Below are positions 1 through 64,000 of a stretch of DNA of 64,000 bases, in pieces. The translations under genes and the position numbers were made by a program. Origin of the DNA: a virus. Under the pieces are notes generated by a model, which saw nothing but the letters and a program-made list of their open reading frames with translations, was not told where the DNA came from and did not search any database. How positions within the stretch are numbered: the stretch's first letter is position 1; each line of letters opens with the position of its first letter. Location of the stretch: the IMG/VR virus record IMGVR_UViG_3300029554_000001; one strand, 5' to 3'.

Positions 1-1350
1 AAAACAGAAGAAGAAATAGAATTAGAACTAAATAAAGATGAAAATAAATCAATTAAAAAGAATTTAAAATATTATAAGAATTTTGATGGATTTAAAATTG
101 GTTTAGGAAATGAAATTTATTTAGTAGATAGACCTATCGAAGATGAAAAAATTAGCAAGTTTTTTCACTTTATTTTAATTGCAAAAGATAAAAAGGGTTA
201 TGAACAAATAAAAAGAATTTCTTCTGATAGCGCTTGGAAAAATTGGTATCGTTCTGGAATAATGGAAAGAGTTCCGACTTATAAAGATGAACTTGAGTCT
301 ATTATTGGGGATGAAAAAGGTCATATTATAGCACAATCTGCGTGTTTAGGTTCAGAATTGGATAATTTAATTCTTGAATATTTAAATACGAACGATAAAA
401 GTATTAAACAAAAAATTGACGCTTTTATTAAATGGTGTATAAAAATATTCGGAAAAGAAAATTTTTATTTGGAAATTCAACCTTGTGTAATTAAACAAGA
501 CAAAGATGGAAACAATTTACCACATGAACAAGCAATGGTAAATCAATTTATGTTTGTTTTAAGTAAAGCTTATGGATTGAAAGTCATTTGTAGTACTGAT
601 AGCCATTATTTAACAAAAAATGATGCAAAAATTCATGAGGCATATTTAAAAGCAGATGACAATGAAAAATCTCGTAACAGAGAAGTGGCTAGTTTTTATG
701 AAACGACTTATATGTTTTCTATAAGTGAACTAGTAGAAACGCTGTCATATCATTTAACAATTGACCAAATTAAAGAAGCTTTAATAAATACTCAACGTAT
801 TTATGATAGTATTGAAGTCTTTGATTTATATCACTCCACTATTGTTCCTACTGATAAAAAGATTCCTCCATTTAAGGTAAAGCATATTTTTAAAGATTGG
901 TATGATAAATATGAATATTTAAAAAAGTATGCCGAATCTGAGGATAAACAAGACCAGTATTTGCTTTATTTGGTAGAACAAGGGTTTGAAAAGAAAAAAC
1001 AATGGGGAGATTCCTCTTATCATTTTGCCACTTATGATGAAAATGGTAAAATTATAGAAGAACATGATAAAATAGTAACTCAAGAAGAAAAAATTGCTCG
1101 TATTAATGAAGAGTTTAGTAGCTTTTGGCAAATTTCTGAGCGTTTAAATCAAAAATTATCTGCATATTATGTACTTGTTAGAGGATTGGTACATGAAGTT
1201 ATGTGGAAAGTTTCTTTTGTTGGTGTTGCGCGTGGTTCAGCAGGGGGTAGTTATATTTGCTATCTTTCTGAAATTACTCAAATTAATCCTCTAAAATATG
1301 ACTTGCCTTTCTGGAGACATAGTTCTCCTTTAAGACCAGAGTTGCCAGAT
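1..1350 (+). CDS. DNA polymerase III alpha-type (DnaE/PolC-like) replicase, exon 1; 5' end outside window
   Basis: Frame 1 is open from nt 1. HFILIAKDKKGYEQIKRISS and FWRHSSPLRPELPD match the DnaE PHP-to-palm region. The ORF is cut exactly at the PD|IDVD catalytic motif; the TAA at 1351 is intronic. Confidence 0.85.
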
Positions 1351-2053
1351 TAAATTATTCTAACATTTATTTAAATATTTTAATGAAAGGGGGAATTATG
1401 AGCGTAGAAATAATAAAAGAAAAAGGAAAATATATTTTTAATCAAGAAGCTATTGATTGTGTTGTTAAAAAGTATCAAGAACATAAAGGGTCTGTTACAA
1501 TATAGAAAGAATTAAAAACAGAGTATAATATAGATGTTAGTATTCATGGTATTTATTTAATTTTACATAATAGAGTAGAAATTAGAGATGACCGTGAATA
1601 GGCTTTAAAATATACTTGCGATGATAATTTCTTTAAAGAAATAGATACAGAAGAAAAAGCTTATTGGTTATAAATAGGTTTTAAGATTAGTAACTTTACT
1701 TTATAAAGACGCTACTATTTATTTGGATAGAAAATATGAAAAATATTTAAAAATGTTAGAAATTAGTCGAGAACAGCAGTAATGTTGTTTGTTAAGTCCT
1801 GTAAACCTAAATTGCAATAGGGTGTGCAGAAATGTGCTAACGGTGAAAGCCTACAGTTAAAATAACCATGGTAATACCGTGCCAAGCTTATATGTAAATA
1901 TATGAAGGTGTAACGACTAGCCCAAAGGGGCGTAGGGTGGAGAAGCTGCCACTCGAAAGACGGATACCCTAATAGTTCGGCTAAGGGTAAAAAGATAGTC
2001 TACTCCGACTCTGAATAGAGTGTTAAAGTATTAGGAAACTAACGGTAGTAAGG
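1351..2053 (+). mobile_element. Group I self-splicing intron (T4 td-like, IA2-type) interrupting the polymerase gene
   Basis: Exon 1 ends in U (..CCAGAU) and the intron ends in G (..GUAAGG). Exons rejoin in frame to give PD-IDVD. The 3' core UAACGACUAGCCCAAAGGGGCGUAGGGU...CUCGAAAGACGGAUA closely resembles my memory of the td intron P7-P9 region (UAACGACUAUCCCUUUGGGGAGUAGGGU...CUCGAAACGAUAGA). The GC-richer block 1790-2053 has no ORF. Confidence 0.75.
1398..1673 (+). pseudogene. Truncated LAGLIDADG-type homing endonuclease remnant inside the intron (2 in-frame TAG)
   Basis: RBS GAAAGGGGG precedes ATG 1398. The ORF ends at ..DTEEKAYWL-TAA, just where the LAGLIDADG helix (AYWLGf..DG) should begin. 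Out-of-frame fragments follow (IGFKISNFTL, KDATIYLDRKYEKYLKML). Confidence 0.5.
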
Positions 2054-4642
2054 ATTGATGTAGATAGTGAGGCTTTAAAACGACCACTTATTTTCCAAAA
2101 TATGCATGATTATTATGGAGATGAGAATGTTTTAAATACTCTTACTTTAAAAACAGAGGGAACAAAATCTACAATTTTAGTGTGTGCTAAAGGGTTTGGA
2201 ATAAATAATGATGATGCACAACATTTGGCAGATTTGGTTCCTTTTGAAAGAGGTTCAAACTGGTCATTAAAAGATTGTTTTTACGGGAATGAAGAAAATG
2301 GTAGAATGCCTGTAAAAGAATTTATTAATGAAGTAAATAAGTACGAAGGGTTGAAAGATACTCTTTTTAAGATTGAAGGACTTATTTGTGGTAGGTCTAT
2401 TCATGCTTCGGCATCTTATATTTTTGATGCTGGATATATTGTTCAAAATAGCAAAATGAGAGCGCCGAATGGTACAACTATCACTGCCTATAATATGGAA
2501 GATTCAGATTATATGGGTGGTTTGAAGATAGACACTTTGACTATTGAAATGCTAGATAAGTTACATACAGCAATAGATTTGCTAATTGAAGCAAAAATAA
2601 TTGAAGATAAAGGAAGTTATAAAGCTAATTATGATACTTATCTTCATCCTGATGTGCTTGATTATAATGATTATAAAATGTGGAATTTGTTAGACAAAAA
2701 CCAAATTTTAGATGCATTTCAATTTGATAGTGCAATGGGACAACAAGTTATTACAAAAACTCAACCTCGTTCTATGTTAGAACTTTCTACAGCTAATAGC
2801 TTAATGAGACTTATGGCGCAAGAAGGTGCAACAGAAGCCCCTATGGATACTTATCGTCGTTATAAAAATAATATTCAATTATGGTATAACGAAATGAAAG
2901 AAAATAAATTATCCAACCATGAGCAAGAAATTATGAAGAAACATTTAGGTAAACTTTATGGGGTTGCTGATACTCAGGAAAGTATTATGGAAATGAGTAT
3001 GGACCCTGAAATAAGCGGGTTTGATGTAGTTCTTGCGAATAAGCTTAGAAAATCGGTGGCCAAAAAAAAGAAAGATTTGATTGCTGCTGTTCATGAAAAA
3101 TTTTACAAAAAGGGCGCAGAATTAGGCACTTCAAAAGAACTGCTTAATTATGTTTGGGATGTACAAATTAAAAGACAGCTCGGATATTCTTTTTCAAAAA
3201 ACCATTGTATGCCCTATACAGCCATTTGTCTTCAGTGTATGAACATTGTACAAAAATATGGGGCGTTATATTGGAATTGCGCTTGTTTAATTGTTAATAG
3301 TGGAAGTACAGATGAAGAAAATGTTGATAACAATAGTGGCGTTAACTACGGTAGAATTGCTAAAGCTATGGGCAATATGATTAATGCTGGCATTAAAATT
3401 TCTTTACCTGATATTAATCGTGCTCGTTTTGGTTTTTACCCTGACAAAGACAGCAATGAAATTATTTATGGCTTAAGACCTATTCAGGGATTAGGAGGGA
3501 AAATAGCTAAAGCAATCGTAGATAACAGACCTTATGCCTCAGTTGAAGATTTTTATTCTAAAATGCAAGAATTTAAAGAGTCTGCAAAAGAGAATAAGTT
3601 TGGCGATACGGCTATGATTTCTCTTATCAAAGCGCGGTGTTTTGATAATCTTGAGAAAAAAGATAGAAGAGCAATTATGGAAGGCTTTATTAGGATTATT
3701 TCAAGTCCTGTTAAGTCTCTTAGTATGCCAAATATAGAAGATTTGGCAAATCTTGATTTATTAACTGAAAATCAAAAAAAGTTTGAATTAAGATTATATA
3801 GATTTAGAAACTATGTTTTCCAGAAAAAATTCTTTTATAAACAAATAGGTAAAAGTGCAAGTACAGCTTATTATATCCTTGAAAATAAATTTGCATGGCC
3901 ATTCTTTGAAAAATATTTCCTTAATGACATGATTGATAAAAAAGATTACGACTGGAGCGATGAGGGACAAAGAGTTGTTAAAAGAGGTAGTTTAGACCGA
4001 GTTTTTAATAAACTCATGGCAGATTTTAAAGATGATGTCTTAAGTGACCCTAAAATGCTTGCGGCTGTAAATGAAGCAAAATTTAAGATGGTATGGGATG
4101 AAAAAGCGACGGGGAATCTGTCTAAATGGGAAATGGATTCTATGTGTTATTATTATCATTCTCATGAGTTGTCAAAAGTAAATAAAGAAAAATATAATAT
4201 AATTAATTTTGAGGATTTGCCTCCTGATGGACCAGTTGTTCAAACTTACCTGTATAGAGGACAAGAAAAGAGTCGTTTTGCATTAAGTAGGATTTGTGGA
4301 ACTGTATTGGATAAAAATAAAAATAAGAATACTGTTGATTTATTAACTCCAACAGGGGTAGTAACTTTAAAATTTTATAAAGGTGCTTTTAATTTTTACG
4401 ATAGGCAATTGTCGAAAGATAATGAAGATGGAACAAAGACCGTAATTGAAAAGTCTTGGTTTTCCAGAGGTAATAAGTTATTGATTACTGGTTATAGACG
4501 TGATACACAATTTGTTCCTCGTAAATATTCTGACAGTTTATATAAACATTCTGTTCAATTAATTAAAAGTATTGATGATAATGGCGAGTTAGTTTTAACA
4601 TCGGATAGAGCGGATAAAGAAAGGGAGGAAAATGAGTTCTGA
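2054..4642 (+). CDS. DNA polymerase III alpha-type replicase, exon 2
   Basis: In frame with exon 1 after intron removal (IDVDSEALKRPLIFQNMHDYYG matches DnaE DxDF....YG). An 860-codon ORF ending in TGA. Confidence 0.85.
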   Translation: MDVDSEALKRPLIFQNMHDYYGDENVLNTLTLKTEGTKSTILVCAKGFGINNDDAQHLADLVPFERGSNWSLKDCFYGNEENGRMPVKEFINEVNKYEGLKDTLFKIEGLICGRSIHASASYIFDAGYIVQNSKMRAPNGTTITAYNMEDSDYMGGLKIDTLTIEMLDKLHTAIDLLIEAKIIEDKGSYKANYDTYLHPDVLDYNDYKMWNLLDKNQILDAFQFDSAMGQQVITKTQPRSMLELSTANSLMRLMAQEGATEAPMDTYRRYKNNIQLWYNEMKENKLSNHEQEIMKKHLGKLYGVADTQESIMEMSMDPEISGFDVVLANKLRKSVAKKKKDLIAAVHEKFYKKGAELGTSKELLNYVWDVQIKRQLGYSFSKNHCMPYTAICLQCMNIVQKYGALYWNCACLIVNSGSTDEENVDNNSGVNYGRIAKAMGNMINAGIKISLPDINRARFGFYPDKDSNEIIYGLRPIQGLGGKIAKAIVDNRPYASVEDFYSKMQEFKESAKENKFGDTAMISLIKARCFDNLEKKDRRAIMEGFIRIISSPVKSLSMPNIEDLANLDLLTENQKKFELRLYRFRNYVFQKKFFYKQIGKSASTAYYILENKFAWPFFEKYFLNDMIDKKDYDWSDEGQRVVKRGSLDRVFNKLMADFKDDVLSDPKMLAAVNEAKFKMVWDEKATGNLSKWEMDSMCYYYHSHELSKVNKEKYNIINFEDLPPDGPVVQTYLYRGQEKSRFALSRICGTVLDKNKNKNTVDLLTPTGVVTLKFYKGAFNFYDRQLSKDNEDGTKTVIEKSWFSRGNKLLITGYRRDTQFVPRKYSDSLYKHSVQLIKSIDDNGELVLTSDRADKEREENEF

Positions 4643-7097
4643 ATTCGTTGAAGAAAAATTCATAAAGATAAAAGCGTCTCATTCTAAGACCCTTTATCCG
4701 AGTGCTGGAATTGGGTCAGACGGTAAAAATTGGGGAATAGTTTCTTGGAATATTCTTGAGGTAGAACAAGGGACTCCTACCATGAGTGTTTATGGTGAAG
4801 TTACTTTTACGGGAGAATACACAGATGGAATTGACCCCAATTCTGCCTATGTGTTATTAGGCAAAGAGGTTGAGCATCCCAAATATGGTGTTCAATATCA
4901 ATTAATTTATTATAATAAAGATATTGATTTTTCTAACCAGAAGAATCAAAGAGCTTTTTTAAGAACTTTTTTATCAGAAGGTCAAATGGATGAGTTGTTT
5001 GCTGTATGCGATGACCCATTACAAGCTATTGCAGACCATGATATAGAAACTTTAAAGAAAGCTAAAGGTATTGGAGATTATATTTCTAATTGTATTATTG
5101 AGCGTTTCGAAGCCAGTAAAGATATGTCTACTGTATATTTAGAGCTTGATAAGGTTGGTTTTTCTCCAAACTTTATTTCTAAACTAATTGAAAAATATAA
5201 AGCTCCACAAAAGGTAATTGATATTGTAAAAAACAATCCTTATCAGTTAGTAAAAGATATTAAAGGAGTAGGATTTTTTACTGCGGATAAAGTGGCTTTA
5301 AGGTCAGGTTATAAAACTTATGACACAAAGAGAATTAAATCTTATATCTTATGGTATCTTGATGCCCAAGGAGAAGAAGGCCATTCTTGGGTGTCCGCTG
5401 GTGAATTAATGGGCTCGTTATATGAAGACCTTGGCGGAAAACAAAGTTTAATAGTAGAAGATGAAGATGGTAATCTTGTAAACAATGTTGGTAAAGCTAT
5501 TAAAGAACTTCAAGATGAGGAGTTAATTCGTGTTGAAGAGGGCGATACTAAATCAGGTCGAAGAGTTTATTTAATGAGCTTTTGGAATCTTGAAAAAGAT
5601 ATTGCTTATCATCTTAAAAGATTACTTCAAGGTAATAATTATTTTGTTGCTAATGATTTTGAAGAGAAAATAAAAAGAGCAGAAGAGAAACAAGGTTTTC
5701 AGTTTACTCAAGAGCAAATAGACGGAATTAAGCTGGGAATTGAAAAACAAGTTTGCGTAATTTCTGGTTTAGCTGGTTCTGGTAAAAGTTCGTTAGTTAC
5801 AGGTATTTTATCTGTACTTGATGAATATACTTTTGCTCAATGTGCTTTAAGTGGTAAAGCGGCGGCAAGATTACAAGAAGTTACTGGCAAAGAAGGTTTT
5901 ACTATTCACCGACTTCTTGGATATACTGGTGGTTGTGGTTTTTCTTATGGAGAAGATAATCCATTACCTTATGATATCATTATTTTAGATGAAGTTAGTA
6001 TGGTGGGTGGAGAAATTTTTCTCGATTTAATTAGAGCAATTCCCACAGGCAGTAAACTTTTAATGCTTGGTGATATGGGACAGCTTGAATCTATTGGTTC
6101 TCTTAATTTAGCTGCGGATATGATTAATAGCAAAGAAATTCCTACTGTTGAACTTAAAGAAGTACATAGACAAGCAAAGGCTTCTGGTATTTTAACTACC
6201 GCTTATAATGTAAGAAATGGTATTCAATTATATCAAGATACTGATTATGAAGGTGTTGAAATTCGCGGAGAACTGAAAGATATGGTACTTGATATTAGAA
6301 ATGAAAAAGATGATGATAGAAAAGATACCATTGCTTATTTTGAAAAATATTTTAATAGCCCTCTTGTAAATGGTGACATTGAAAAAATTCAAATTATTTC
6401 TCCTGTGAAAGAACGTGGAGATGCTTGTGTTCACAATTTAAATCTTGATATTCAAAAATTAATTAATCCTGTTGATTTGAATGAATCTCGTCCAAGAATT
6501 TACGTTCAAAAGATGAAAGATGCTTCTGGAAATGACAGGTCTTTTTGGATTCAAGAAGGTGATAAAGTAATGTGTATTAAAAACAATTATAAAGTTTTTG
6601 ATACAAGTGGAGCACAAACAGCTATGTATAATGGGTGGACTGGTGTAGTTACAAGTATTGATTATGAAAATGCCATCGTTGATTTCGATTTAGGAGATGC
6701 ACCTATTATTTTAAAACACAAAGAAGTTAAGGAACATTTAATTCTAGGATATGCTTGTACTACTCATAAATATCAAGGTTCTGGTTGCCCTGTAATTATT
6801 GGAATAATAGATTATAGTACTCCTCCAATGATGCTTTGTCAGCAACAGATTTACACTTTATTAACCAGAGCTAAGAAATTGTGTGTACTTGTAGCTCAAA
6901 CTAAAGCCTTACGACGTTCTATTGATACAAATTTTGTTTCAACAAAAAGAACATTCCTACCTGAATTTTTGAAGTAGGAATACAGATAGCTTAGAGAATA
7001 GTATAATGTGCTTCATAGAAAAGAAGATGAAGAGCGTAGAACTTTAATTAGGCAACTAAAAGATTGGAAAGAAAAAGATGAAGTACAAGAGGAATAA
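4632..7097 (+). CDS. RecD/RecD2-like SF1 DNA helicase
   Basis: Walker A GLAGSGKSS, Walker B IIILDEVSMV, GDMGQLESIG, and C-terminal YACTTHKYQGSG / LLTRAKK. The track stop at 6975 is TAG. Reading 3 TAGs (6975, 6987, 6999) as sense extends 40 codons to TAA 7095-7097, which lies inside a terminator hairpin. Confidence 0.85.
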
Positions 7098-7111
7098 TTT
7101 TTATTATCCTC
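7089..7111 (+). terminator. Intrinsic terminator-like hairpin abutting the next promoter
   Basis: GAGGAATAAT-TTTT-ATTATCCTC, immediately followed by TTGACA. Confidence 0.55.
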
Positions 7112-8587: not shown

Positions 8588-8622
8588 TTCAGAAGATAAA
8601 AATTAGTAAAGGAGAGTTTAAG

Positions 8623-10992: not shown

Positions 10993-11535
10993 ATGGCTCT
11001 CCCTAATTATAATAAGCTCGTTATAGGAGATACTGAAACTACTGGATTTAAAGAAAATAGAATTGTTAGTATTGCAATTTTAGTGTATGAAAACGGCAAA
11101 AAAATTGCTGATAAATATATATTAGTAAATCCGTAGACCTAGATTGAAAGTGGAGCATCTAAAGTTAATGGTATCACTTATGATACTATTAAAAATTGCC
11201 CTACATTTGACGAAGTTTGGGAAGAAATAAAAGATTATATGACAGATAGTGTTTGGATTTTTCATAATGCTAAATATGATGCTAACAAAGTAATCTATCC
11301 AGAATTAAAAAGATATCACATTCCAATTCCAAATCATGCTGTTTGTTGTACCTTAGAAAATGCGAAACGTTTAATTCCAAAAGCAGAAGTAGCTAATTAT
11401 AAATTAGGGACTTTGCTTGAACATTTTGGCTATACTTTAGAAAATGCTCATAGCGCAGATGCAGATACTTGGGGTTGTATGAAATTATATAATTAGTTAG
11501 TTAAATTATCTGATGGTAATTTAGATGTTACATAA
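10993..11535 (+). CDS. DnaQ-like DEDDh 3'-5' exonuclease (3 in-frame TAG)
   Basis: Exo I VIGDTETTG, Exo II IFHNAKYDANK, Exo III HSADADTWG. TAGs at 11134, 11140 and 11494 join the fragments in one frame. True stop is TAA 11533. Confidence 0.8.
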
Positions 11536-11780: not shown

Positions 11781-13709
11781 ATGGACATTTCACTTCGTTT
11801 AACAAAAGATTTTGAAAGATGCCTTGAAGATTTAAAAAAGAAATATGGTGAAGATTTCGAATATATTAATGGGGTTCATTCTAGTTAGTTAGATTTTTCA
11901 GAATTCTTAGATAAATTCGTAAATCAAAGCACAATGGCAGATGCTACTATCGACCCTAATGCAAATGCTAGCCATAGAGATATTCGTTCTTTTATGACTG
12001 AAAAGGGGAAGAGTGAAGATAAGCTTTTTGGTTTAAATAAAATTTTCCTTGAAATTAAGAAAAAATGGGGGCTGCGTACTGCTAAAGCTTGGTTAGAATA
12101 GGAATTTAGCAAGGGTTTTTATCTTAACGATTCTGCTACGGCAAGTTATTTTCCCTATTGCTGGGCAAACGATTTAACTCGTTTGGCAAGAGAGGGATTA
12201 TTTTTCCTTGGAGGATATAATAATCAGCCTCCTAAACATTTGGACACATATTTTGATGATGTTATTGAGTTTGTTTCGTTCCTCAGTAACCGTCAATCTC
12301 GGGCCGTTGGTCTCCCAAATGTAATTATTTGGGCTTATTATTTCTGGAAAATGGATATAAAGAATGGGCATTATTTTAAAGACCCAGATACTTATTTAAG
12401 ACAATATTTTCAGAAATTTGTTTACAGATTAAATCAGCCATTCCTTAGAATTGACTAGTGCGCTTTTACAAATGTAAGTATTTTTGACCGTCCTTATCTT
12501 GAATCTTTGTTTGGTGGTTTGGAATTCCCAGATGGGTCTTTCGCTATTGACCAAATTGAAGAAATTATGAAGTGCCAGCGTTTATTTATGGATGTAGTAA
12601 GTGATATTCGCAGTGAAAACATGTTTACTTTCCCTGTTTTAACTTATTCTTTACTTTATAAAGATGGCAAATTTGAAGATGAAGAAACTGCTCGATGGGC
12701 TTGTTATCATAACATTAAGTGGTCTGATTCTAATTTCTTTGTATCTGATAATGTTGGAGTACTTTCAAATTGTTGTCGTTTGCTTTCTGACACTCAAAAG
12801 CTTGATGCTTTTGTTAATTCTATTGGTGGTACAGCATTGTCTGTTGGGTCTTGTCGTGTGAGTACAATTAATCTTATGCGCATTGCATATGAGACTAAAT
12901 TTAATAAAAAGAAATATATTGAACTTCTTAAAGACCGTGTACTTTTGGATTGTAAGGCATTAACTAGTATGCGTCACATTTTAGAGCGCAATATAGAAAA
13001 AGGTTTACTTCCTAACTATCAAGAAGGAGCAGTCGAACTTGACAAGCAATATTGTACTATTGGTATTCTTGGAATGTATGAAGTTATTGATTCTTTTGGA
13101 TTAATTAATACTGACGAGTTTGGTAATAAATATTATACAGAAGAGGGATTGGAATTTGCTTGCCAGATTCTTGATACTATCAATGAAGTAAAAGATAATT
13201 TTGAATGTGATTTTTCTTTTAATGTTGAATCTATTCCTCGGGAAAATTGCGCTGGTGTAATTTGTACCGCAGATAATCTCTTGTTTGAGCAAGATAAATA
13301 TTTTATTTACTCAAATTAGTGGGTCTCATTAACCGAACAATGCACTATTAAAGAAAAGTGTCGTTTAGGAAGCGTACTTGATGAAAAATGTGGTGGCGGC
13401 TGCATTGCTCATATTGATATTGAAAATCGTTTTGCAACAAAAGAAAGTGCTTGGGATATGCTTAATTACATTGCTTCTAAAGGTGTAATTTATTTTGCGT
13501 TTACAACTAAAATTAATGTTTGTGAAGATAAACATTCTTTCATTGGAACTCAAACATGTCCTATTTGTGGAAAGCCTGTAGCAGACCAATATGCAAGAGT
13601 AGTAGGTTTTTATACTCCAGTAAGTAGTTATCAAAAGATTAGAAAAAAGGAATTTAATTTAAGACGTTGGTATAATGTTTTAGATGCAGATTCTATTATG
13701 AAAGGATAA
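11781..13709 (+). CDS. nrdD: Anaerobic (class III) ribonucleoside-triphosphate reductase (4 in-frame TAG)
   Basis: Four track ORFs (12183, 12507, 13458 plus the 5' part) share one frame with ATG 11781. They are joined by TAGs at 11886, 12099, 12456 and 13317. C-terminal Zn ribbon CPICG and glycyl-radical region RVVGFYTP. Confidence 0.85.
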
Positions 13710-17866: not shown

Positions 17867-18294
17867 ATAGTCAGATGGCTAATAAAGTAGACCATACTAT
17901 TGATGGTAAATGTTCTGGATGTGGAGCTTGTTGTTCTGCAATTCTTTGTGTAAGTGATGCAGAAGTAAAGAAGATTAAAAAGTATCTTGGTCAGCATCCA
18001 GAAGTAAAAATGATTAATCGTAATACTGCTTTAGATAAAGATTTTAAAGATATTTGTCCTTTTTTGAACAAGGAAAACAAGTGCCAAATTTATGAAGTAC
18101 GACCTGAGATTTGTTCTCGTTTTATTTGTTCTGCTTTTAAGGATACTTCTATTCCTCCTCTTAATCATAGAAATAAGAGAATCATTAATATGATTACTAC
18201 ATTTATGGGAGAAAAGACTTGTCCAAATGCTCCTGACCTCGTAGGGTTGAATAAGTTTTATGAAAGTAAAAAGAAAGAGGTTTATGGGAAATGA
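17857..18294 (+). CDS. YkgJ-family Zn/Fe-S cluster protein
   Basis: CSGCGACCS ... CPFL..ENKCQIYEVRPEICSRF (CxxCxxCC family pattern). Confidence 0.7.
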   Translation: MGMNSQMANKVDHTIDGKCSGCGACCSAILCVSDAEVKKIKKYLGQHPEVKMINRNTALDKDFKDICPFLNKENKCQIYEVRPEICSRFICSAFKDTSIPPLNHRNKRIINMITTFMGEKTCPNAPDLVGLNKFYESKKKEVYGK

Positions 18295-18560
18295 CAATTA
18301 AATATTGTTGTGAAAAGTGTGGAAAAGAGTTTTAGTCTTTAGGCGAATGTTATTTACATGAGAGAAAATGTATTGACGGGATAGATGGAAAGAAAGCCGT
18401 TTTAATGCTTGAAGAATTAAGTTATCCTTATGGGCAAGCTGTTTGTAAACATTGTGATAATCATTATATGGTTTATGGATGTGAGCTTTCTTGTAAGTAT
18501 GAAAGGTCTTGTAAAAAGAGAGATAATTATCCTTTCTGGAAAGAAGAGGAAAAGGAATGA
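18291..18560 (+). CDS. Small zinc-finger-like protein (1 in-frame TAG)
   Basis: ATGA overlap. CCEKCGKEF-TAG-SLGECYLHERKC, with TAG at 18333. Ends at TGA 18558. Confidence 0.55.
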
Positions 18561-26096: not shown

Positions 26097-27023
26097 ATGC
26101 CCTATAAAAAAAGAAAAGATAATTTGTGGTGTGTTTATAAGCATACAAGCCCTTCTGATGGAGTATATATAGGAATAACAAGTGATTATCCTTTAGCAAG
26201 ATGGAGAAATGGTCGAGGATATGATTGTTGTGAAGTTATGAATAAAGCTATAAAAAAATATGGCTGGGAAAATTTTACTCATGAAATATTATTTGATAAT
26301 TTAACAAAAGAAGAAGCTTGTTAGAAAGAAATAGAATTAATAGCCTTTTACAAAAATTAGGGACATTGTTATAATTTAGCTGAGCGGGGAACTAATGGAT
26401 TAGCTTCAGAAGAAACTAAAAAGAAAATGTCTTCAAATAGACAGCGGAAAAACGCTCATGGTTGGCGGCATATTGTTTCTTCAGAAACTAAACAAACGGT
26501 AGCTAAAAAAATAAAAGGTATTAAAAGAAATTCAAAGACTAAAGAAAAATTAAGTAGCACGCATAGTAAAAAAGTTTATTAGTATAATTTAAACGGAGAA
26601 TTAATTCAGGAATGGGACAGTGTATATCAAGCATCTAATATATTAGGATTAGCTCGAAGCCCAATTACACGTTGTAGATTATATTAGCAAAAAATTTATT
26701 AGAACTGTTTATGGCTGCTTGATTATATTGATGCTATATTAATATAGAAATATTTAAACAATGAAATCATTATTCCTCCGATTAAAAATAAGTCTTTATT
26801 ACAAAAGAAAGTAAGTTGTTTTTAGGATGAGAAAAAAATTAAAACTTTTGATTCTATAAAAGAAGCTTCAAAATGGTCAAAAATTACTGAACAGCAAATT
26901 CGGTATGCTTGTAAAAACAATAAAATTGCAGGAGAATATTATTGGAAATATGAAGAAGATTATTTTGGTGACAATTATTTTCTTTATTGGGCCAATAATC
27001 AGGATAAAATAAAATAGGAGTAA
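26097..27023 (+). CDS. GIY-YIG homing endonuclease (8 in-frame TAG)
   Basis: VYKHTSPSDGVYIGIT...RW..G and YNLAERG (GIY-YIG core), plus basic NUMOD-like repeats. 308 codons with 8 TAG and no TAA or TGA until 27021. Confidence 0.8.
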
Positions 27024-28284: not shown

Positions 28285-29037
28285 ATGAAAGAGCCTGTAA
28301 AAATTGGAGACGTTTTCGGTCGTTTGAAGGTTTTGTACAAGTGTGATTACTAGTATCATGGACCTAATCGGAAACGAGCTAATTTGTGGCATGTGCAATG
28401 TTAGTGCGAAAATAAAACAGAATTTGATGTTTTAACAAATAGTTTGACTTCTGGTAACACAAGGTCTTGTGGTTGTTTACAAAAAGAGGCTACTATTGAG
28501 AGTGGAAAGAAAAGAAGAAAATTAAACAAATATGATTTAAGTGGAGAATATGGGATAGGATATACTTCTAAAAATGAACCTTTTTATTTTGATTTAGAAG
28601 ATTATGATAAAATAAAAGAATATGTTTGGGTATATAATAAAGAAAAATATCCTGTTACAACTGTTTATAAAAATAATCAGCCTCATTATTTACATTTAAA
28701 AAGATTTGTTTTAGATATTACTGACTCTAAAATAGATGTAGACCATAAAAACCATGTTCCTTATGATTGCAGAAAAGAAAACTTAAGACCTTTAGAACAT
28801 TATCAAAATATTGGTCATTGTAAAATTTATACTAATAATACTTCTGGTGTTAAAGGCGTAAGTTACGATAAAATGCGAAATAAATGGAAAGCTTCTTTAG
28901 TTGTAAATAAAGAAACTAAATTAAACAAACGTTTTGATACTTTTGAAGAAGCTGTAAAAGCACGTCAAGACGCAGAAGAAAAATATCAACAAGGATTTAG
29001 ATACAATTCTGATGAAGATTTGTATAATAGAGGATAA
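28285..29037 (+). CDS. HNH-type homing endonuclease with AP2 DNA-binding domain (2 in-frame TAG)
   Basis: GDVFGRLKV...SCGC N-terminus, VDHKNH...NLR (HNH), GVKGVSYDKMRNKWKASL...FDTFEEAVKAR (AP2). TAGs join ATG 28285 to the track ORF at 28444. Confidence 0.75.
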
Positions 29038-35953: not shown

Positions 35954-36691
35954 ATGAAACATACTGTTATGGATTAGATTACAGATAAAGAATTTGAACA
36001 AATAGTTAAAAATTCTTATTCTTATCGAGAAGTAGCTGAAAAATGTGGGTATTGTTGTATAAGTGGAGCTTCTTCTAATATTGTGAAAAAGAGAATTTAG
36101 AAATTAAATTTAGATGTTTTTCATTTTAAAAAATCGCTTCATGTTTATCGACCAGATGATGAAATTTTTGTTGAGGATTCAAAAGTAGGGCAGACAGTTT
36201 TAAGAAAACGTTTTTTAGCCTTGAATGTAGTTGAATATAAATGTTCAATATGTGGATAGGAACCATTTTGGAATGGAAAGCCTTTATCGTTAACATTAGA
36301 CCATATAAATGGTAAAAACCATGATAACAGGTTTGACAATTTAAGGTGGGTTTGTCCTAATTGTGATAGATAGCTTCCCACTTTTGGACGGCGTAATGCT
36401 ATTCACGAAGCAAAATATAATTATTGTGTTGATTGTGGAATTGTTATTACTTTTAATGCAACAAGATGTAAAAAATGTGCAGATAAAGTTAAAGCAGAAA
36501 AACAAAAAAATATCAACAAACCAAACAGAGAAGAATTGAAAAAATTAATTAGAGAAAAGAATTTTTTAACTTTAGGAAAAGAGTTTAATGTCTCTGATAA
36601 TACTATTAGAAATTGGTGCGAAAGTTATAATCTTCCAAAAAAAACAAGAGAAATAAGATTAATAAAAGACCAAGATTGGGAATTTTTGTAA
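35954..36691 (+). CDS. HNH homing endonuclease (4 in-frame TAG)
   Basis: LDHINGKNHDNRFDNLRWVCPNCD (HNH), Zn ribbons, and a C-terminal HTH-like NTIRNWC. TAGs at 35975, 36098, 36257 and 36371; codon-by-codon check runs to TAA 36689. Confidence 0.8.
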
Positions 36692-37265: not shown

Positions 37266-37400
37266 GTAACCACGATACCGCCTTGAAAAAGGTCGTGGAG
37301 GTTCGCCTAACAGATGGAGTATCGCTTAATGTTAGGATGTGTATATGGCGCACCTAAGTTCAGACCGTTCAGAACCTACAACCATATTAGCGGTGACAGC

Positions 37401-37501
37401 TTGGAGAGACAGCAAATATGCGGCAACTGGTGTAATAATAAAAGTAGCCATGGACAATACTTTTATTATGTTTGGAGTTCGATTCTTCGATGCCGCTCCA
37501 A
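37401..37501 (+). ncRNA. ACAGCAA-led atypical tRNA-like RNA (module variant B)
   Basis: TTGGAG-AG-ACAGCAA-ATAT, then acceptor GCGGCAA/ATGCCGC, a 12-bp hairpin ATAATAAAAGTA/TACTTTTATTAT (loop GCCATGGACAA), T-arm TGGAG-TTCGATT-CTTCG, and T-CCA. The leader TTGGAG pairs with CTCCAA, overlapping the CCA. Confidence 0.5.
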
Positions 37502-37860
37502 AAGACAGAATGGTTAGATATTTCTTGATGTCTTCAAAAAACAAGAAATCCGTAAGGTCTGTACGAAACATTCCTTGGAATACAGTTTAGCTGGTTACAA
37601 TGTATTCGACACTGAACCGCCCTCCAAGTCTGATGGACTGGTAACAATAGAAAGACCGTTGCTTTGCTTAACTGGGTACGTTAAACCCTTATGCAATGAG
37701 CAAAACTGATAATGAAAATGACCAAGATAGTTGAGTGTAAGCCCCTTATAAGGAATAGCCTCTCCTCAGCCAAACCGAGGACAGATAAGTGAAAAGCTGG
37801 TCTGTCAGTAGTTATCAGTTTTTGTTCCTTATATATTTAATAAAATAAAAGGGTGTTTTT
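37502..37860 (+). ncRNA. ORF-free structured region (unknown RNA)
   Basis: GC-richer than the coding DNA. Long-range pairing AACTGATAA (about 37697)/TTATCAGTT (about 37812) and several local hairpins. Track ORFs here lack RBSs. Confidence 0.3.
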
Positions 37861-41584: not shown

Positions 41585-41893
41585 ATGACTATTAATTTTA
41601 AGATTTACATTTATTAGACAGCAAATAATAAAAAGTTTGTTTATAGATGTCCTCATTGTAATAAAGGGATAATGCAAGTAGCAGAAACTAAAACTGCTAA
41701 AGATGAAACTAATTTTTTATCTTGGAATTATACTTGCCCAGTTTGTAAGAAGCAGATTGTCTCTATTGAAAAAGACGGTTGTTCTTCTTTTAAAAGTGTG
41801 TTCCCTCCAATGACTCAAATTAGTGATAAAGAATTTACTGATATTAAAAAGGATGTAGGAGAGAAGGGTATTTATCTATTCTCTGAAACATAA
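41585..41893 (+). CDS. Zn-ribbon protein (1 in-frame TAG)
   Basis: ATG 41585 and TAG 41615 are in frame with the track ORF at 41672. CPHC...CPVC. Confidence 0.55.
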
Positions 41894-43658: not shown

Positions 43659-43687
43659 TTGACAAGATGAAGAGTATATGTTATACT
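43659..43687 (+). promoter_or_regulatory. sigma70-like promoter driving the distal RNA cluster
   Basis: TTGACA, 17 nt spacer, TATACT. Confidence 0.65.
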
Positions 43688-44905: not shown

Positions 44906-44934
44906 CTTAAGGTCATTTGACTTTATTTAACATT

Positions 44935-45005
44935 GCGGCGTAGTATAATGGTCAATGCGCACGGCTCTAACCCGTGAAATGCTCGTTCGATTCGAAGTCG
45001 CCGCT
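44935..45005 (+). tRNA. Candidate amber-suppressor tRNA (anticodon CTA)
   Basis: Perfect anticodon arm CACGG-CTCTAAC-CCGTG (44960-44976). Acceptor GCGGCG/CGCCGC, TA, D-arm GTA-TAATGGTCAA-TGC. T-loop TTCGATT with an imperfect stem GCTCG/CGAAG. No encoded CCA. Confidence 0.6.
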
Positions 45006-45112
45006 GAAATATCTAAGGAAAAGTATTTTTCCTTTTGACATATAAGCAGAATAAACAAAAAATTAAAATAAAAACTAAAGTAAAACAAAGAAATTAAAGG
45101 AGACAAAAAATT

Positions 45113-47774: not shown

Positions 47775-48040
47775 ATAACCAAGCTAAAGGTAACACTTTA
47801 GCGAACAAGGAAAGGCTTAAGACAAGATGTAGCAAGCATTATTTAATTGATTTGGTTGTAAAGCGTTTCACCAACGCAGATTGCTACGACGAACTAAACT
47901 TGCTTAAAGGTAGCGGGAGCAATCCTCTAAAAGATTTCCGATGGTGGTTTGGAACTTCTCTATTTGGTGTAAGAAGGTAAATGGATAAGGCAACATTCGT
48001 GTTAGCGTTTATCGTGTAGGAAATTTTAGAGTAGATAAAA
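47775..48040 (+). ncRNA. Candidate ~260-nt structured leader or RNA
   Basis: Promoter TTGACA..TATTAT at 47746-47774. Helices GCTAAAG/CTTTAGC and GTAGCAA/TTGCTAC. The track ORF 47765-47980 starts inside the promoter and lacks an RBS. Confidence 0.35.
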
Positions 48041-48055
48041 AGAAAGGGAAATATA

Positions 48056-48418
48056 ATGTCTACTAAAATTTACGAAATTATTCCTTATGAAGTAGAAACT
48101 TTGAAGTGGGAAAAAGACAATTGGGAAGAAGTTGTAGAGTTTTTTAAAGCTCATAATGTTGAAATTAAGAATATTGTTAAATATTCTGAAAAGGCGCTTG
48201 AAAGTTTTAAAAAGCTTAATAAGACTTGGTTTGAAAAAAATATTGATAATGAAGGTAGACATGCTTTTGTTGCTTATAGACCGGAAGATGATTCTCATGA
48301 TGAATATGAAGAATTTGTTGAACTTGGGGATTATTTTGTAATTGGAAAAGATGGCTTAGTTTATGTAAAACATGGATTTAATTTTGAGAATATGTTTAGG
48401 GAGAAAGAAAATGTTTGA
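48056..48418 (+). CDS. Hypothetical protein
   Basis: RBS AAAGGGAAA upstream; 120 aa. Confidence 0.6.
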   Translation: MSTKIYEIIPYEVETLKWEKDNWEEVVEFFKAHNVEIKNIVKYSEKALESFKKLNKTWFEKNIDNEGRHAFVAYRPEDDSHDEYEEFVELGDYFVIGKDGLVYVKHGFNFENMFREKENV

Positions 48419-56609: not shown

Positions 56610-57080
56610 ATGGTTGATATTAAATGGCTTTAGACTCAAGAAGGATAGAAAGCTTATTAGACTTGGATAAGGAAATTAGCAAACCGAGCAGAAGATAGGA
56701 CAGATATTCCAATTTTAGTAGATACCAACGGAGAAATTTAGGTTTGGGTAACAATAAATAAAAAATATCTATCTAAAGAGCAATTTGAAAAACTTGCTGA
56801 TAAATCTGATGGTGAAATTACTACAAAATTAGAATTTAAAACAAAAGATATTATTATAAGAGAGCTTACTTCTATCGCAAAGAGCAGAGAGGCTTTAGCA
56901 GATAATGAAGATGAAAGAGAACTTTTATGTCCCCTTGTTTCATTGTTTCAAGGAATAGAAGATGCTATTACTAATGATATTTGCTATAAAGCTCAAAATG
57001 CTAAACAGCTTTTTATAAACAATTTCGAAAAAAATTTAGGAAAAAACGAAAATAATTCTAATAACCTCTTGACAAACTAA
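56610..57080 (+). CDS. Hypothetical protein (4 in-frame TAG)
   Basis: 156 codons from ATG 56610 to TAA 57078, with TAGs at 56631, 56646, 56658 and one further downstream. No other stop in frame. Confidence 0.55.
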
Positions 57081-57177: not shown

Positions 57178-57199
57178 TCCTTTAGAAAAGGAGAAAATT

Positions 57200-58930
57200 A
57201 TGTATAACTACAACAATCCTAACAAGAAGAATAACACTAAGGCTTGGGCTCCTAAGCCTGAAAAGCCTGTTACTAAGTCCAACCGAGTTAGCCGTAAGGC
57301 TTCTTTCATGGACAAGGTTGAGAATACTGCCAAGGGCTACTACACTCAGGTTGCAATTCCTTCTCTTCCTGCTGATAAGCAGTACACTTCTAATGGTGCT
57401 ATTGCCTACAAGTCCTCTGGTTCTGCTCTTCTTGATATCAATACTTCCATTACCGCTCTTCGTAGTCTTCCTGATGGTAATATTGTGAAGAAGTTCCGTG
57501 CAGCTTATTCTGAGAATCCTCGTCTCGCTATTCGTTGGCTGTTCTATGCTGGCGATATCCGTGAGGGTCAGGGTGAGCGCCGTCTCTTCCAGATTTGCCT
57601 TAAGGATATGATGAACAATGGTGGTGCTCAGATTGTGGCGAACCTGATTCCTATGATTCCTGAGTATTCTCGTTGGGATTATATCTATGTTGTCATGGAT
57701 AATCCTACTACTAAGCCTGTTGTTCGTGAACTGATTCGTAAGCAGTGGAAGGAAGATATGGCTAATATGAAGAAGGGCAAGTCCATTAGCCTTATGGCGA
57801 AGTGGCTTGATAGTGCTTCTTCTCACAGCCATGATACTCGTAAGCGTGGTCTTAAGACTATGGATATGCTCGGTCTGACTGAACGTGAGTATCGTAAGGG
57901 GCTGTCTGCTCTCCGTAAGCACCTTGATGTTGTTGAGCGTAAGATGTCTTCTCAGAATTGGCAGAGCATTAATTACGAGACTGTTCCTTCTAAGGCAAAC
58001 CTTAATTACAACAAGGCTTTCCTTCGTAATGATGAGGAGCGCCGTCGTGCCTATTTGAACGCTCTTACTAAGGGCGAGGCAAAGATTAATTCTTCCGTAT
58101 CTAATCCTTGTGACATTGTTCACAAGTATTGCGAGAATGATTGGGGTACTTCTCCTCATTCTTATGATGCCGCCCTTGAAGGCATGTGGAAGGCTCTTCC
58201 CAATCTTGTAACCGATGATAGTTCCACTATTGTTGTTGCCGATGGTTCTGGTTCTATGTGTGCTACCGTGGGTCGTACTCGTATGACTGCTCTTGAGGTT
58301 GCTAACTCTCTTGCAATTTACTTTGCAGAGCGTGCTAAGGGTGCATACAAGGGTCGTTACATTACTTTCTCTGCACGTCCTCAGATGGTTAATGTTAATC
58401 ATGACTCTTTGCGTGCAAATCTTAGAGAAGCTGCTCGTCATAGTGAGGTTGCTAATACCAACCTTGAAGCAGTATTTGACCTGATTCTTGATACTGCAAT
58501 TAAGAATCATTCTCCTCAGAGTGATTTGCCTAAGAATATTCTGATTATCAGTGATGGTGGTTGGGATTCTATGGTAAATATCCGTAATGTTAGCACTGGC
58601 AGTAATGGTTACGGTGGTTATGGTTATTGGGGTTATAACAGCACTCGTGCTACTGCTAAGGAAGCTCCTGCTTTCCTTAAGTCCATTGAGCAGAAGTACA
58701 AGAACGCTTCCTATGAGTGTCCAAAAATTTGTTTTTGGAATGTGTGCGGAAATGGTAACACTAATAATGGTCTTCCTATGACCAAGAATGACTATGGTAT
58801 CATGGTCAGCGGGTTTAGTGTTCAAACTTTGAAAATGATTCTCAGTGGCAAGACTAATCCTTGGGATGCACTTATGGAAGTGGTCTTGGATAAGCGTTAT
58901 GACAAGATTGAGGAGCTTGCTTTTAAGTAA
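57200..58930 (+). CDS. Ro60-like protein: helical N-domain (DUF2828/TROVE-like) plus vWA domain with MIDAS
   Basis: GAIAYKSSGSALLD, ENPRLAIRWLFYAGDIREGQGERRLF, MIDAS VVADGSGSM. C-terminal ICFWNV...NNGLP...YGIMVSGFSVQTLKMI parallels Ro60 LIVCGM..NGF.IADP.DRGMLDMCGFDTGALDVI. Confidence 0.65.
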   Translation: MYNYNNPNKKNNTKAWAPKPEKPVTKSNRVSRKASFMDKVENTAKGYYTQVAIPSLPADKQYTSNGAIAYKSSGSALLDINTSITALRSLPDGNIVKKFRAAYSENPRLAIRWLFYAGDIREGQGERRLFQICLKDMMNNGGAQIVANLIPMIPEYSRWDYIYVVMDNPTTKPVVRELIRKQWKEDMANMKKGKSISLMAKWLDSASSHSHDTRKRGLKTMDMLGLTEREYRKGLSALRKHLDVVERKMSSQNWQSINYETVPSKANLNYNKAFLRNDEERRRAYLNALTKGEAKINSSVSNPCDIVHKYCENDWGTSPHSYDAALEGMWKALPNLVTDDSSTIVVADGSGSMCATVGRTRMTALEVANSLAIYFAERAKGAYKGRYITFSARPQMVNVNHDSLRANLREAARHSEVANTNLEAVFDLILDTAIKNHSPQSDLPKNILIISDGGWDSMVNIRNVSTGSNGYGGYGYWGYNSTRATAKEAPAFLKSIEQKYKNASYECPKICFWNVCGNGNTNNGLPMTKNDYGIMVSGFSVQTLKMILSGKTNPWDALMEVVLDKRYDKIEELAFK

Positions 58931-58995: not shown

Positions 58996-60312
58996 ATGGA
59001 AACTGTAAAGCAAAATAAACAATTAATGGAAATTTGGGATACAGAAGAAAATAAAAAACAAAATATTTTCCCCGAAAATATTTCTTTGGGAAGTTCTAAA
59101 ATAAAAATAAACTGGAAAGATAAATATGGTCATAAATGGCAAAGAGCTGTTTCTGTATAGTTAAGAGCAAAAAATATATGCCCCATTTGTGCTAATAAAA
59201 AAATAATAAGAGAAAATAGCTTTGCTACTCTTTATCCAGAGATTTTAAAAGACTGGGATTATGATAAAAATACAATATCGCCATTTAATATTTCTCCAAA
59301 ATCAGGTCGAAAAGTTTGGTGGAAGTGTTTTATTTGTGGATTTAATTGGTAGACCAGAGTAAGCCATAGAACACAAAATGGAACTGGTTGTCCTGAATGC
59401 TCTAAAAGCATAATTTCACAGAAAAAATAGGCAACTGATTATTAGCATAGTTTGGCTAATCTTTATCCTTAGTTATTATCAGAGTGGGATTATAATAAAA
59501 ATGATAAAAAACCATCAGAAATTTATGCCCATTCTTCTTATAACGCATGGTGGAAATGCGAATTTGGGCATTCTTGGTAGGCGAAAGTACATTCTCGAAC
59601 AAGAGAAAAACCTGCTGGATGTCCAATTTGTCTAAAAAGATATTGTAGCAGTTTTCCAGAGTAGGCTATTTATTATTACTTTTAGTAGGTAACTAAAACT
59701 ATTAATAGAGATTAGAGCTTTGGAAGAGAAAAAGAAATAGATATTTATTGCCCAAAATTAAAAATTGGAATAGAATATAATCGGTCATTTTTCCATCAAA
59801 ATGAAAAAACAGAAGATAAAATTAAGTTCTTTAAAGAAAAAGGCATTAGACTAATTGTTGTTACAGATGCAAAAGAGAACAAAGTAGATAATGATTGTAT
59901 TTATCATAAAGAGACAGATGAGGATTTATCTTGGGCTATTAAAGAAATTTTTAAAATAATTCAAATAGAACCTCCATTAATTGATATTGGCAAAGACAGA
60001 AATTCTATTTTGGATAACTATATGTTTTCCATGAAAGAAAAAAGTTTATTAGCTAAAGTACCTGATGTTATATATCAATGGGATTATGAAAAAAATTACC
60101 CTTTAAAACCAGAATAGTTTTTACCACAGAGTCGTTTTGAAGCTAATTGGAAATGCTCAAATCGGCATTTATGGAAGCAAAGAATTTGTAATAAAGTAAC
60201 TCATCAAAATGGAAAATATCATATCTCTCAATGTAGCATCTGTAAACCAATTAAAGGTGGATTTAAATTGTCCCCGTTTGCCACTGAACTAACTTATGAA
60301 AGAGAGGGGTAA
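58996..60312 (+). CDS. Homing-endonuclease-like protein: repeated treble-clef Zn ribbons plus Vsr/PD-(D/E)xK-like core (11 in-frame TAG)
   Basis: Repeats WxCxxGHxW..(x)..R....GCPxC. FPEQAIYYYF and EIDIYCPKLKIGIEYN..FFH. 438 codons checked one by one: 11 TAG, no TAA or TGA before 60310. Confidence 0.75.
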
Positions 60313-62013: not shown

Positions 62014-62200
62014 GATTGGTGAAAAAGAATTTGTTAATGGCGATATCTATTACAATCCTTTTTTCGGTGATTTATGGATAATTCAAAACGATACAAAAAT
62101 TAAGAAAATTAATGATAGTTATATTACTGATATTGATGATGTTGCTGAATTTGTATATGTTGGTCATATAGATTTAGAATAGCAAGGAGTGATAAAATGA
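61997..62200 (+). CDS. Hypothetical small protein (1 in-frame TAG)
   Basis: ATG 61997 after AGAGGA. TAG 62180 read through to TGA 62198. Confidence 0.5.
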
Positions 62201-62562
62201 GCTACGATATTAGTTACAGAGTCCAATGTAAGGATAATCCTAAACTTTGGGCTGATGTTGGAAACTGTGAAGCAAATATTACTTACAATTTGCGTGAAAT
62301 GATTTAGAAATCTACAAGCTTGGAGTGGAAAAATGAAGAAGATAATGGTCTTGTAAAAGATGTTATTCCTTTTATTATTCACGGTTTAGAAGAGCTTGAA
62401 AGATTCCCAAATAAATATAAACAGTATGAATCTCCTAATGGATGGGGAACAATTAATGGATGCAAGAGTTTCTTTACCCGATGTATTTTAGATTGGACTA
62501 ATTTTACAAAAGATAGTTGGACCTCTCCATATAAAGATATTGTACATTTCTGGATTGTTTAA
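62197..62562 (+). CDS. Hypothetical protein (1 in-frame TAG)
   Basis: ATGA coupling. TAG 62305 joins to the track ORF at 62320. Confidence 0.55.
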
Positions 62563-63925: not shown

Positions 63926-63940
63926 TAATAGAGGTGTAAC

Positions 63941-64000
63941 ATGGACAATTTCTGGAAGACATCACTGGAAAATAAGAAGAAAGAATGGAAGACGGTTCTC
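63941..64000 (+). CDS. Hypothetical protein, 5' fragment (continues beyond window)
   Basis: RBS GAGGTG before ATG 63941. MDNFWKTSLEN resembles the N-terminus MQDFWKLALEN of the 10547 protein. Confidence 0.45.
   Translation, partial: MDNFWKTSLENKKKEWKTVL

Follow-up and report, generated by a model that had tools for sequence, protein, structure and literature searches.

The stretch of DNA analysed here, referred to as the window, comprises 64,000 nucleotides of the IMG/VR virus record IMGVR_UViG_3300029554_000001, and its subject is the codon TAG, which very probably stands for glutamine in this phage. The window has a G+C content of 32.8% and nearly all of its genes lie on the plus strand. 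Homology and the annotation of close relatives identify it as the replication, nucleotide-metabolism, RNA-repair and tRNA part of a large phage. It carries a split DnaE, a RecD2-type helicase, a UvrD helicase, an NAD-dependent DNA ligase and a DnaQ-type exonuclease for replication and repair, dUTPase, NrdD/NrdG and ThyX for nucleotide metabolism, a NifS-like enzyme, a radical SAM protein, a C5 methylase and about 20 clustered tRNA genes. Annotation and homology of the window genes revealed no structural or lysis genes and no terminase. A Shine-Dalgarno motif precedes half of the genes, compared to a background of 9%.

Related contigs were located via the protein neighbouring a tRNA with the anticodon CUA, hereafter tRNA(CUA), and are denoted by L and a number. 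They originate from gut metagenomes and IMG/VR, are 108–221 kb long and agree in approx. 90–96% of nucleotides along the greater part of their length. A megablast search of positions 11700–20000 against GenBank phages gave no match. Judged by the helicase protein, the isolates that come closest infect Bacillota, namely phages of Thomasclavelia, Brevibacillus and Bacillus with at most 36% identity, a hint that the host belongs to the Bacillota as well.

TAG codons in otherwise open reading frames

The initial annotation had described TAG as a sense codon across the window and counted about 48 of them in 16 genes. Its in-frame sites were recovered exactly in plus-strand frames with TAA and TGA as sole stops, and the count proved to be fair. 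A greedy, non-overlapping gene call with TAG as a sense codon gave 98 genes with up to 59 in-frame TAGs, whereby 24 genes contained at least one. The numbers range from 45 to 59 TAGs in approx. 20 to 24 plus-strand genes. Besides the named genes with several TAGs (Table 1), about ten genes carry one or two each. Neither TAA nor TGA was found within the recoded frames, as had been claimed. The off-frame density of TAA and TGA amounts to 8.8% per codon; on this basis, the chance that the frame stays open after its first TAG is 6e-25 for nrdD, 5e-16 for the DUF4379 gene, 5e-10 for the GIY-YIG gene and 3e-10 for the HNH gene.

A gene re-call with a TAG-sense code had been proposed as a check of this reading. 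The standard code gives the plus strand a coding density of 76.6%, and reading TAG as sense raised it by 9 points to 85.6%; the gaps left were tRNA genes and an intron core. No gain was observed when TGA was taken as sense as a control (76.7%). Summed lengths of the open reading frames (ORFs) under alternative codes were tried as well and did not discriminate between them, unlike the non-overlapping gene call. At the level of gene structure, TAG is confirmed as a sense codon in the window genes.

Table 1. Genes that contain TAG in their reading frame and elements connected with its decoding. Positions are those of the window.
Feature	Coordinates	Strand	TAG positions	Remarks
nrdD (anaerobic ribonucleotide reductase)	11781..13709	+	11886, 12099, 12456, 13317	642 codons
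DnaQ/RNase T-type exonuclease	10993..11535	+	11134, 11140, 11494	no CAA or CAG whatsoever
RecD2-type helicase	4632..7097	+	6975, 6987, 6999	TAGs in C-terminal tail; true stop TAA 7095
GIY-YIG/NUMOD-type homing endonuclease	26097..27023	+	8 TAGs	phrog_314, residues 4-289, E 1.8e-29; NUMOD1 domain
HNH-AP2 homing endonuclease	28285..29037	+	28351, 28402	phrog_374, residues 6-239; phrog_99 match
HNH endonuclease	35954..36691	+	35975, 36098, 36257, 36371	phrog_10822, residues 9-223, E 1.4e-42
DUF4379 (treble-clef zinc ribbon) endonuclease-like protein	58996..60312	+	11 TAGs	Pfam DUF4379, 4 repeats, E 2e-55
Intron-encoded endonuclease ORF	1383..1673	+	1503, 1599	phrog_4645, residues 18-91, E 1.4e-7; within dnaE group I intron
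ORF	56610..57080	+	56631, 56646, 56658, 56739	open save for TAG
Small ORF	47981..48418	+	48017, 48032	
Small ORF	18291..18560	+	18333	TAG in 3 close relatives, CAA in L002
Small ORF	62197..62562	+	62305	CAG in L026 (at least 90% identical)
Small ORF	37314..37709	+	37515	TAG kept in 9 relatives; 65 more codons to TGA
Small ORF	41585..41893	+	41615	TAG kept in 14 relatives; near 5' end, start-codon dependent
Amber-suppressor tRNA (predicted)	44934..45006	+		anticodon CUA 44967-44969; ARAGORN 44935-45005; Rfam tRNA 36.8 bits, model positions 2-69
Sigma-70-like promoter match	43659..43687	+		TTGACA-17-TATACT with TG, 11 of 12; ahead of the tRNA sub-cluster ending with tRNA(CUA)

The frames had been said to continue past TAG with motif-consistent sequence, and matches in Pfam, PHROG and the PDB indeed span the TAG codons. 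Pfam NRDD covers residues 90–631 of NrdD in one unbroken match (E 2.8e-79), and the NrdD of Thermotoga maritima (PDB 4coi) aligns over residues 4–634 (E 6.5e-152). The exonuclease is matched by Pfam RNase_T over residues 10–166, corresponding to profile positions 1–164 of 164, and by phrog_192, a polymerase exonuclease family, over residues 6–173; its TAGs are kept in five close relatives. Beyond TAG 6975, the helicase tail aligns with uninterrupted orthologues (e.g. LRExYN with LRAEYN in L003), and public gene calls give the helicase of the relatives a length of 820–837 amino acids. PHROG families of homing or HNH endonucleases extend along the whole of the recoded endonuclease ORFs (Table 1). 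The Pfam matches of the HNH-AP2 ORF to HNH_3 and AP2 are weak. No family match in Pfam or PHROG was obtained for the ORF at 56610–57080; its four TAGs are all kept in L026, where a gene of 156 amino acids was called.

According to the initial annotation, the genes end with TAA or TGA. This was found for all 98 genes (77 TAA and 21 TGA), but it holds by construction of the gene call and TAGs close to gene ends were therefore considered separately. In three genes, a TAG lies no more than 20 codons from the end. Approximately six would be expected if TAG were an ordinary sense codon and 13–20 if 10–20% of the genes stopped at TAG. In the public gene calls of three relatives, TAG stops were not needed either. 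Judged by these gene ends, TAG is abandoned as terminator.

The TAA of the helicase at 7095–7097 had also been placed in a terminator hairpin. A hairpin is present (CAAGAGGA...TCCTCTTG) within 7085–7140 and the stop codon sits in its loop, but the scan did not call a terminator since a T run is missing. The 3' arm of this hairpin overlaps the -35 element of a strong promoter-like site at 7112–7140, which agrees with the consensus in 11 of 12 positions and has an extended -10 TG.

Identity of the amino acid and the tRNA(CUA)

The initial annotation had suggested glutamine by analogy to other phages, and codon-level evidence now takes the place of this analogy. It had further proposed to align the recoded proteins to homologues; in orthologues with at least 70% identity, those of the TAG sites that are not TAG there are mostly occupied by CAG or CAA. 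A gut-metagenome nrdD with 84% identity is devoid of TAG and has CAG, CAG, CAG and CAA at the four sites, which is also the case in L002, while a 95%-identical allele has TAG, CAG, CAA and CAA. Among five alleles with 99% protein identity, all five read CAG at site 12456; at site 13317, four read CAA and the fifth TAG. A CAA of the window is replaced by TAG in four of these alleles, and the swap thus runs in both directions. The Thermotoga NrdD has Gln at three of the four TAG sites. As a separate observation, nrdD is 84–95% identical to the alleles of L002 and L003 and the adjoining genes merely 35–65%, a pattern reflecting either unusually strong constraint or exchange between lineages.

For a tally of sites, all window genes were compared to 22 related loci and the non-TAG counterparts of the window's TAG sites were counted. 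With at least 90% identity, these were CAG (four), CAA (four) and GAA (one). Between 70 and 90% identity, five CAG and one CAA were found together with three codons for other amino acids, all three in dubious ORFs. In credible genes with at least 70% identity, 14 of 15 non-TAG counterparts were glutamine codons. In the small ORF at 47981–48418, site 48032 is CAG in six relatives and TAG in two, and site 48017 is TAG in eight relatives. The 11 TAG sites of the DUF4379 gene correspond to eight TAG, two CAA and one GAA in a 91%-identical homologue and to five CAA, one TAG and five other codons in a 53%-identical one. Two of these TAGs fall on a repeat position at which glutamine is the commonest residue, with 207 of 611 homologue repeats (34%) compared to a background of 2.5%. 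A pattern of Tyr, Trp, Lys or Ser at the TAG sites was not seen in close relatives. The codon comparison supports glutamine as the predicted meaning of TAG in the window genes.

Two lines of evidence on the amino acid were discarded. Database proteins show Q at every TAG site, but these genes were called with code 15, the genetic code in which TAG stands for glutamine, and the argument would be circular; the codons of the DNA were compared instead. The TAG sites of the exonuclease and the helicase tail align with variable residues in orthologues of 45–55% identity and were retained as support for read-through alone.

A suppressor tRNA is found in 35–40% of code-15 phages, and its presence is supportive and not obligatory. 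The scan for a CUA tRNA that had been proposed earlier was successful with both ARAGORN and Rfam. The predicted tRNA(CUA) lies 29 nucleotides past tRNA-Arg(UCU) at the end of the tRNA cluster. In canonical numbering, position 1 is T44934, which is unpaired against T45005 (position 72), and the discriminator base G73 is 45006. The anticodon and D arms are regular. A tRNA(CUA) directly follows tRNA-Arg(UCU) in 14 of 14 related contigs, and the locus is clearly under selection. The sequences at this locus fall into four types or more. Type A with identical or near-identical copies is present in the window, L015 and L016; in L010 and L022, a type related to it has a long variable arm and, after nucleotide 33, an intron of approx. 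220 nucleotides. Type B was found in L011, L017 and L018, and variants of type C in L013, L014, L019, L020 and L021 as well as, with an intron of approx. 220 nucleotides, in L012 and L023.

Five intron-less tRNA(CUA) variants can be folded into one shared cloverleaf, in which 12 of 20 pairs show compensatory changes and the acceptor end is invariant. U1 and U72 are unpaired in every type examined. The ten intron-less genes have G73, as do L010, L012 and L022, while L023 as extracted reads C73. G2-C71, G10 and the loop CUCUAA are kept in the intron-less variants, to which the comparison of G2-C71 and G10-C25 among the relatives was confined; G3-C70 is not conserved. The window's tRNA(CUA) itself has all five features of the rules for glutaminyl-tRNA synthetase (GlnRS), namely U35, an unpaired 1-72, G73, G2-C71 and G10-C25. 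In E. coli, amber suppressors made from tRNA-Trp, tRNA-fMet, tRNA-Ser and tRNA-Asn turn glutamine-inserting, a destabilised 1-72 pair is common to all of those selected, and U35 and the 10-25 pair are contact points of GlnRS (PMC9976931). By this likeness, the tRNA evidence points to glutamine too, and the tRNA(CUA) would be charged with it. The promoter match ahead of the tRNA sub-cluster suggests, from its consensus, that the host polymerase may transcribe it.

With regard to its structure, the tRNA(CUA) locus is a variable cassette among genomes that are approx. 90% identical. Intron-bearing loci are located at 8581–8885 in L010, 8566–8870 in L022, 9578–9871 in L012 and 8586–8878 in L023, while the copy of the window is intron-less. 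In L012 and L023, the intron follows nucleotide 35 or 36. In all four genomes it has a group I-like look, with a 5' exon ending in U and an intron ending in G. None of the tRNA(CUA) introns gave an Rfam group I match at gathering score.

Uneven recoding and competing explanations

TAG accounts for 10.6% of the glutamine-type codons overall, but its distribution is far from even. In the four recognisable homing endonucleases, 25 of 58 glutamine-type codons are TAG (43%) compared to 34 of 497 elsewhere (6.8%), which corresponds to an odds ratio of 10 (p = 4e-12); 25 of the 59 TAGs thus reside in four genes. Fifteen genes of at least 250 amino acids are free of TAG, among them the two parts of DnaE, the ligases, UvrD and the proteins resembling PARP and Ro. 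Of the seven real ORFs with the highest TAG density in the relatives, six are homing or HNH endonucleases, and L002 has three TAGs only in 22 kb, two of which are in a LAGLIDADG gene. Borges et al. described this tendency for an intron endonuclease of Agate phages, in which TGA is recoded, and suggested that the endonuclease is thereby made later (bioRxiv 10.1101/2021.08.26.457843). The idea of a delayed endonuclease is therefore not new, and the present data extend the tendency to the TAG codon and to several free-standing endonuclease families.

Such partial and non-random recoding, with TAG-free large genes on one side and endonucleases as the TAG-densest ORFs of window and relatives on the other, favours a meaning of TAG that changes during infection. 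TAG would stop translation early, with nothing but host factors present, and be read as glutamine once tRNA(CUA) has accumulated; it would act as a timer or lock, above all on homing endonucleases, and not be fully reassigned. This has been suggested for the Agate intron endonuclease and for late genes in general (bioRxiv 10.1101/2021.08.26.457843), and it refines the assignment to glutamine and does not exclude it. However, nrdD, the exonuclease and the helicase are recoded as well, although they are replication-type genes expected in early or mid-infection, and the tRNA(CUA) cluster lies behind a host-type consensus promoter that suggests early expression. We regard a stage-dependent meaning as a plausible refinement with the chances somewhat against it. 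The concentration of TAG in homing endonucleases would make their synthesis conditional on the suppressor tRNA, and it is conceivable, though rather unlikely, that a reassignment has been caught in progress and is used as a lock on selfish genes. This would fit the interchangeability of TAG and CAG/CAA between NrdD strains of 99% identity and the TAG share of approx. 43% in homing endonucleases compared to approx. 7% elsewhere, as well as the suppressor as a swappable cassette, with at least four tRNA bodies at one locus that have the unpaired U1/U72 acceptor end in common, some with a group I-like intron. If it were true, the timing of the endonucleases would be controlled by the suppressor tRNA, in some cases also by its splicing, and the endonucleases would be confined to code-15 genomes.

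Another amino acid at TAG, be it pyrrolysine, Glu, Lys, Trp or Ser, is very improbable. In its favour, GAA or AAA is found opposite a few of the sites, the tRNA variant of L010 and L022 resembles class II tRNAs in its long variable arm, and ARAGORN labels the tRNA 'Pyl', but this label is given to any CUA tRNA and names nothing more than the anticodon. The 14 glutamine codons among 15 informative substitutions speak against it, and at the window sites no swap of TAG with TAT/TAC, AAG or TGG occurs in close relatives. The hallmarks of tRNA-Pyl systems are a 6-bp anticodon stem, a short D loop and a variable loop of three nucleotides together with pylS and pylBCD. The tRNA(CUA) has a 5-bp anticodon stem, a D loop of eight nucleotides, two bases separating the acceptor stem from the D stem and a variable region of four nucleotides, and all window ORFs of at least 300 amino acids are accounted for without PylS or any other tRNA synthetase. 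Even less credible, to the point of being practically dismissed, are pseudogenes or TAGs from assembly or sequencing errors. Homing endonucleases often decay and the source is uncultured, yet up to 59 in-frame TAGs contrast with zero in-frame TAA, TGA or frameshifts in the same genes, and essential genes such as nrdD are affected. The recurrence of identical TAGs in independent assemblies from different samples refutes this explanation.

Several observations weigh against TAG as a glutamine codon read by the tRNA(CUA) of the window. About 10–14 5'-proximal TAGs hinge on the start codon picked, and the robust number of TAGs is thus 45–50. In orthologues below 70% identity, the TAG sites align with many different residues, so that single sites in the fast-evolving endonucleases are uninformative. 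The tRNA itself has a T stem with three Watson-Crick pairs and two mismatches, an extra base before the 3' strand of the acceptor stem and no encoded CCA. Its Rfam score is the lowest among the tRNAs of the window, and folding by minimum free energy does not yield a cloverleaf. These oddities are the weakest point of the case for this genome. It may be a weak suppressor, and another one could lie outside the window.

Taken together, the codon exchanges, gene ends and tRNA features make it very probable that a large gut phage of approx. 200 kb uses genetic code 15, with TAG for glutamine and TAA and TGA as sole terminators. The phage-encoded tRNA(CUA) at the end of the tRNA cluster would read TAG. 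A host enzyme would charge it with glutamine, either GlnRS directly or glutamyl-tRNA synthetase (GluRS) via the GluRS/GatCAB route, and the charged tRNA would presumably outcompete release factor 1 at TAG. TAG codons arise mainly from CAG and CAA and are still polymorphic between near-identical strains. The reassignment is partial in its extent: approx. one tenth of the glutamine-type codons are TAG, approx. one quarter of the genes have one and a good number of the large genes for replication and repair have none.

Neighbouring features and comparison with known systems

The dnaE gene is split by a group I intron into exons at 262–1353 and 2102–4642. The intron extends over approx. 1354–2101 with its core at 1771–2023, where Rfam Intron_gpI matches with 46.8 bits (E 1.3e-10), slightly below the gathering score. 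The dnaE genes of L006 and L007 are uninterrupted (1266 amino acids) and that of L005 contains an intein (1820 amino acids). Genes for RNA repair and ADP-ribose are dense at 7622–9981, 25260–28284, 29521–30354, 57152–58930 and 17420–17866. They encode a PNK-like kinase, a T4 Rnl1-like RNA ligase, a Thg1-like 3'-5' nucleotidyltransferase, a Ro/DUF2828-like RNA-binding protein, a Macro-domain protein, a PARP-like protein with a WGR domain and NADAR. This set suggests a heavy investment in tRNA/RNA repair or anti-defence.

Two tRNAs of the window are split in the anticodon loop, namely tRNA-Gln(UUG) at 43951–44110 by an insert at 43985–44067 and tRNA-Ile(UAU) at 44596–44731 by an insert at 44633–44691. 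Relatives have such inserts in tRNAs Lys-UUU, Glu-UUC and Gly-UCC (L012 3682–3806, L011 2955–3097, L023 456–596 and L014 197–330). The boundaries were set from intron-less alleles and from alleles whose insert is placed elsewhere in that loop. ARAGORN's intron mode misplaces some of them, which leads to mislabelled anticodons such as 'SeC' or 'Glu'. The inserts are 50–85 nucleotides long and tRNA-like themselves, with an acceptor-like stem of 7 bp, a D arm and a T arm with a UUCAAGU-type loop, but no anticodon arm; they end with ACCA or, in some copies, with CCCA, ACCG or ACAA. Their fold is supported by covariation, with 98.6% of the cells paired, compensatory changes in nine of 16 pairs and none of 500 shuffles reaching the score. 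A search for an Rfam family matching them was negative. 'Enigmatic' tRNA introns, one of them predicted to encode a tRNA, have been described for Lak megaphages (bioRxiv 10.1101/356790). As a hypothesis, the insert could be cut out by RNase P on its 5' side and by a 3' endonuclease after CCA, whereupon the phage Rnl1-like ligase would reseal the loop.

Two further tRNA genes are unusual. The tRNA-Arg(CCG) at 43720–43815 has 96 nucleotides, including an extra stem-loop of approx. 23 nucleotides in the variable region, compared to 75 in most relatives. A candidate tRNA-like gene at 37147–37265 has a good acceptor stem, a T arm and CCA, but approx. 46 extra nucleotides in its middle. It is kept in L011 and L018 and was called by ARAGORN in intron mode only and not by Rfam.

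In every sequence-level property, the window agrees with code-15 gut phages, which are an already known phenomenon. Public gene calls for the lineage already translate TAG as Q, and the novelty is accordingly low. The case adds another independent and well-supported example of TAG read as glutamine, in a probable Bacillota phage with many close relatives, and leaves the knowledge of alternative codes unchanged. In practice, annotation with the standard code leaves nrdD in five fragments, misses several endonucleases and cuts the helicase short; translation table 15 is required. The population is suited to the study of stop-codon capture since TAG/CAG polymorphisms separate near-identical strains, and it also lends itself to the questions why selfish endonucleases are most recoded and how suppressor tRNAs gain glutamine identity.

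Code 15 with suppressor tRNAs is known from the crAss-like, Lak, Jade, Sapphire and Garnet clades of gut phages (bioRxiv 10.1101/2021.08.26.457843), and in crAss-like phages the recoding of TAG to glutamine was confirmed by metaproteomics (PMC9523058). As in these phages, in-frame TAG aligns to glutamine, the tRNA(CUA) is phage-encoded, the genome has approx. 200 kb, a host with the standard code is predicted and the phage code is variable among close relatives. The fraction of recoded genes (approx. 24%) is close to that reported for the Sapphire clade (26%); the likeness to the Sapphire and Jade clades of Borges et al. comprises a size of approx. 150–220 kb and this fraction only. Unlike in those phages, the TAGs are found in replication-type genes and homing endonucleases and not in structural or lysis genes, because the window is a replication, nucleotide-metabolism and tRNA region. 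With the Agate phages it shares that selfish endonucleases hold the highest density of the reassigned stop, which was interpreted there as delayed production. It differs from them in the codon, TAG and not TGA, in the free-standing families GIY-YIG, HNH, HNH-AP2 and DUF4379 and in the many related contigs.

The tRNA(CUA) resembles pyrrolysine decoding in that a CUA-anticodon tRNA would read in-frame TAG. However, no pyl genes were found in the window, the tRNA does not have the architecture of tRNA-Pyl, and the aligned residues are Gln and not Lys or Pyl. It is closer to the E. coli suppressors supE tRNA-Gln and su7 tRNA-Trp and to the selected tRNA-Asn and tRNA-Ser CUA suppressors, with which it has U35, a weak 1-72 pair, G73 and G10-C25 in common (PMC9976931). 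The tRNA-Gln(UUG) of the phage is not its source, as the body sequence is different.

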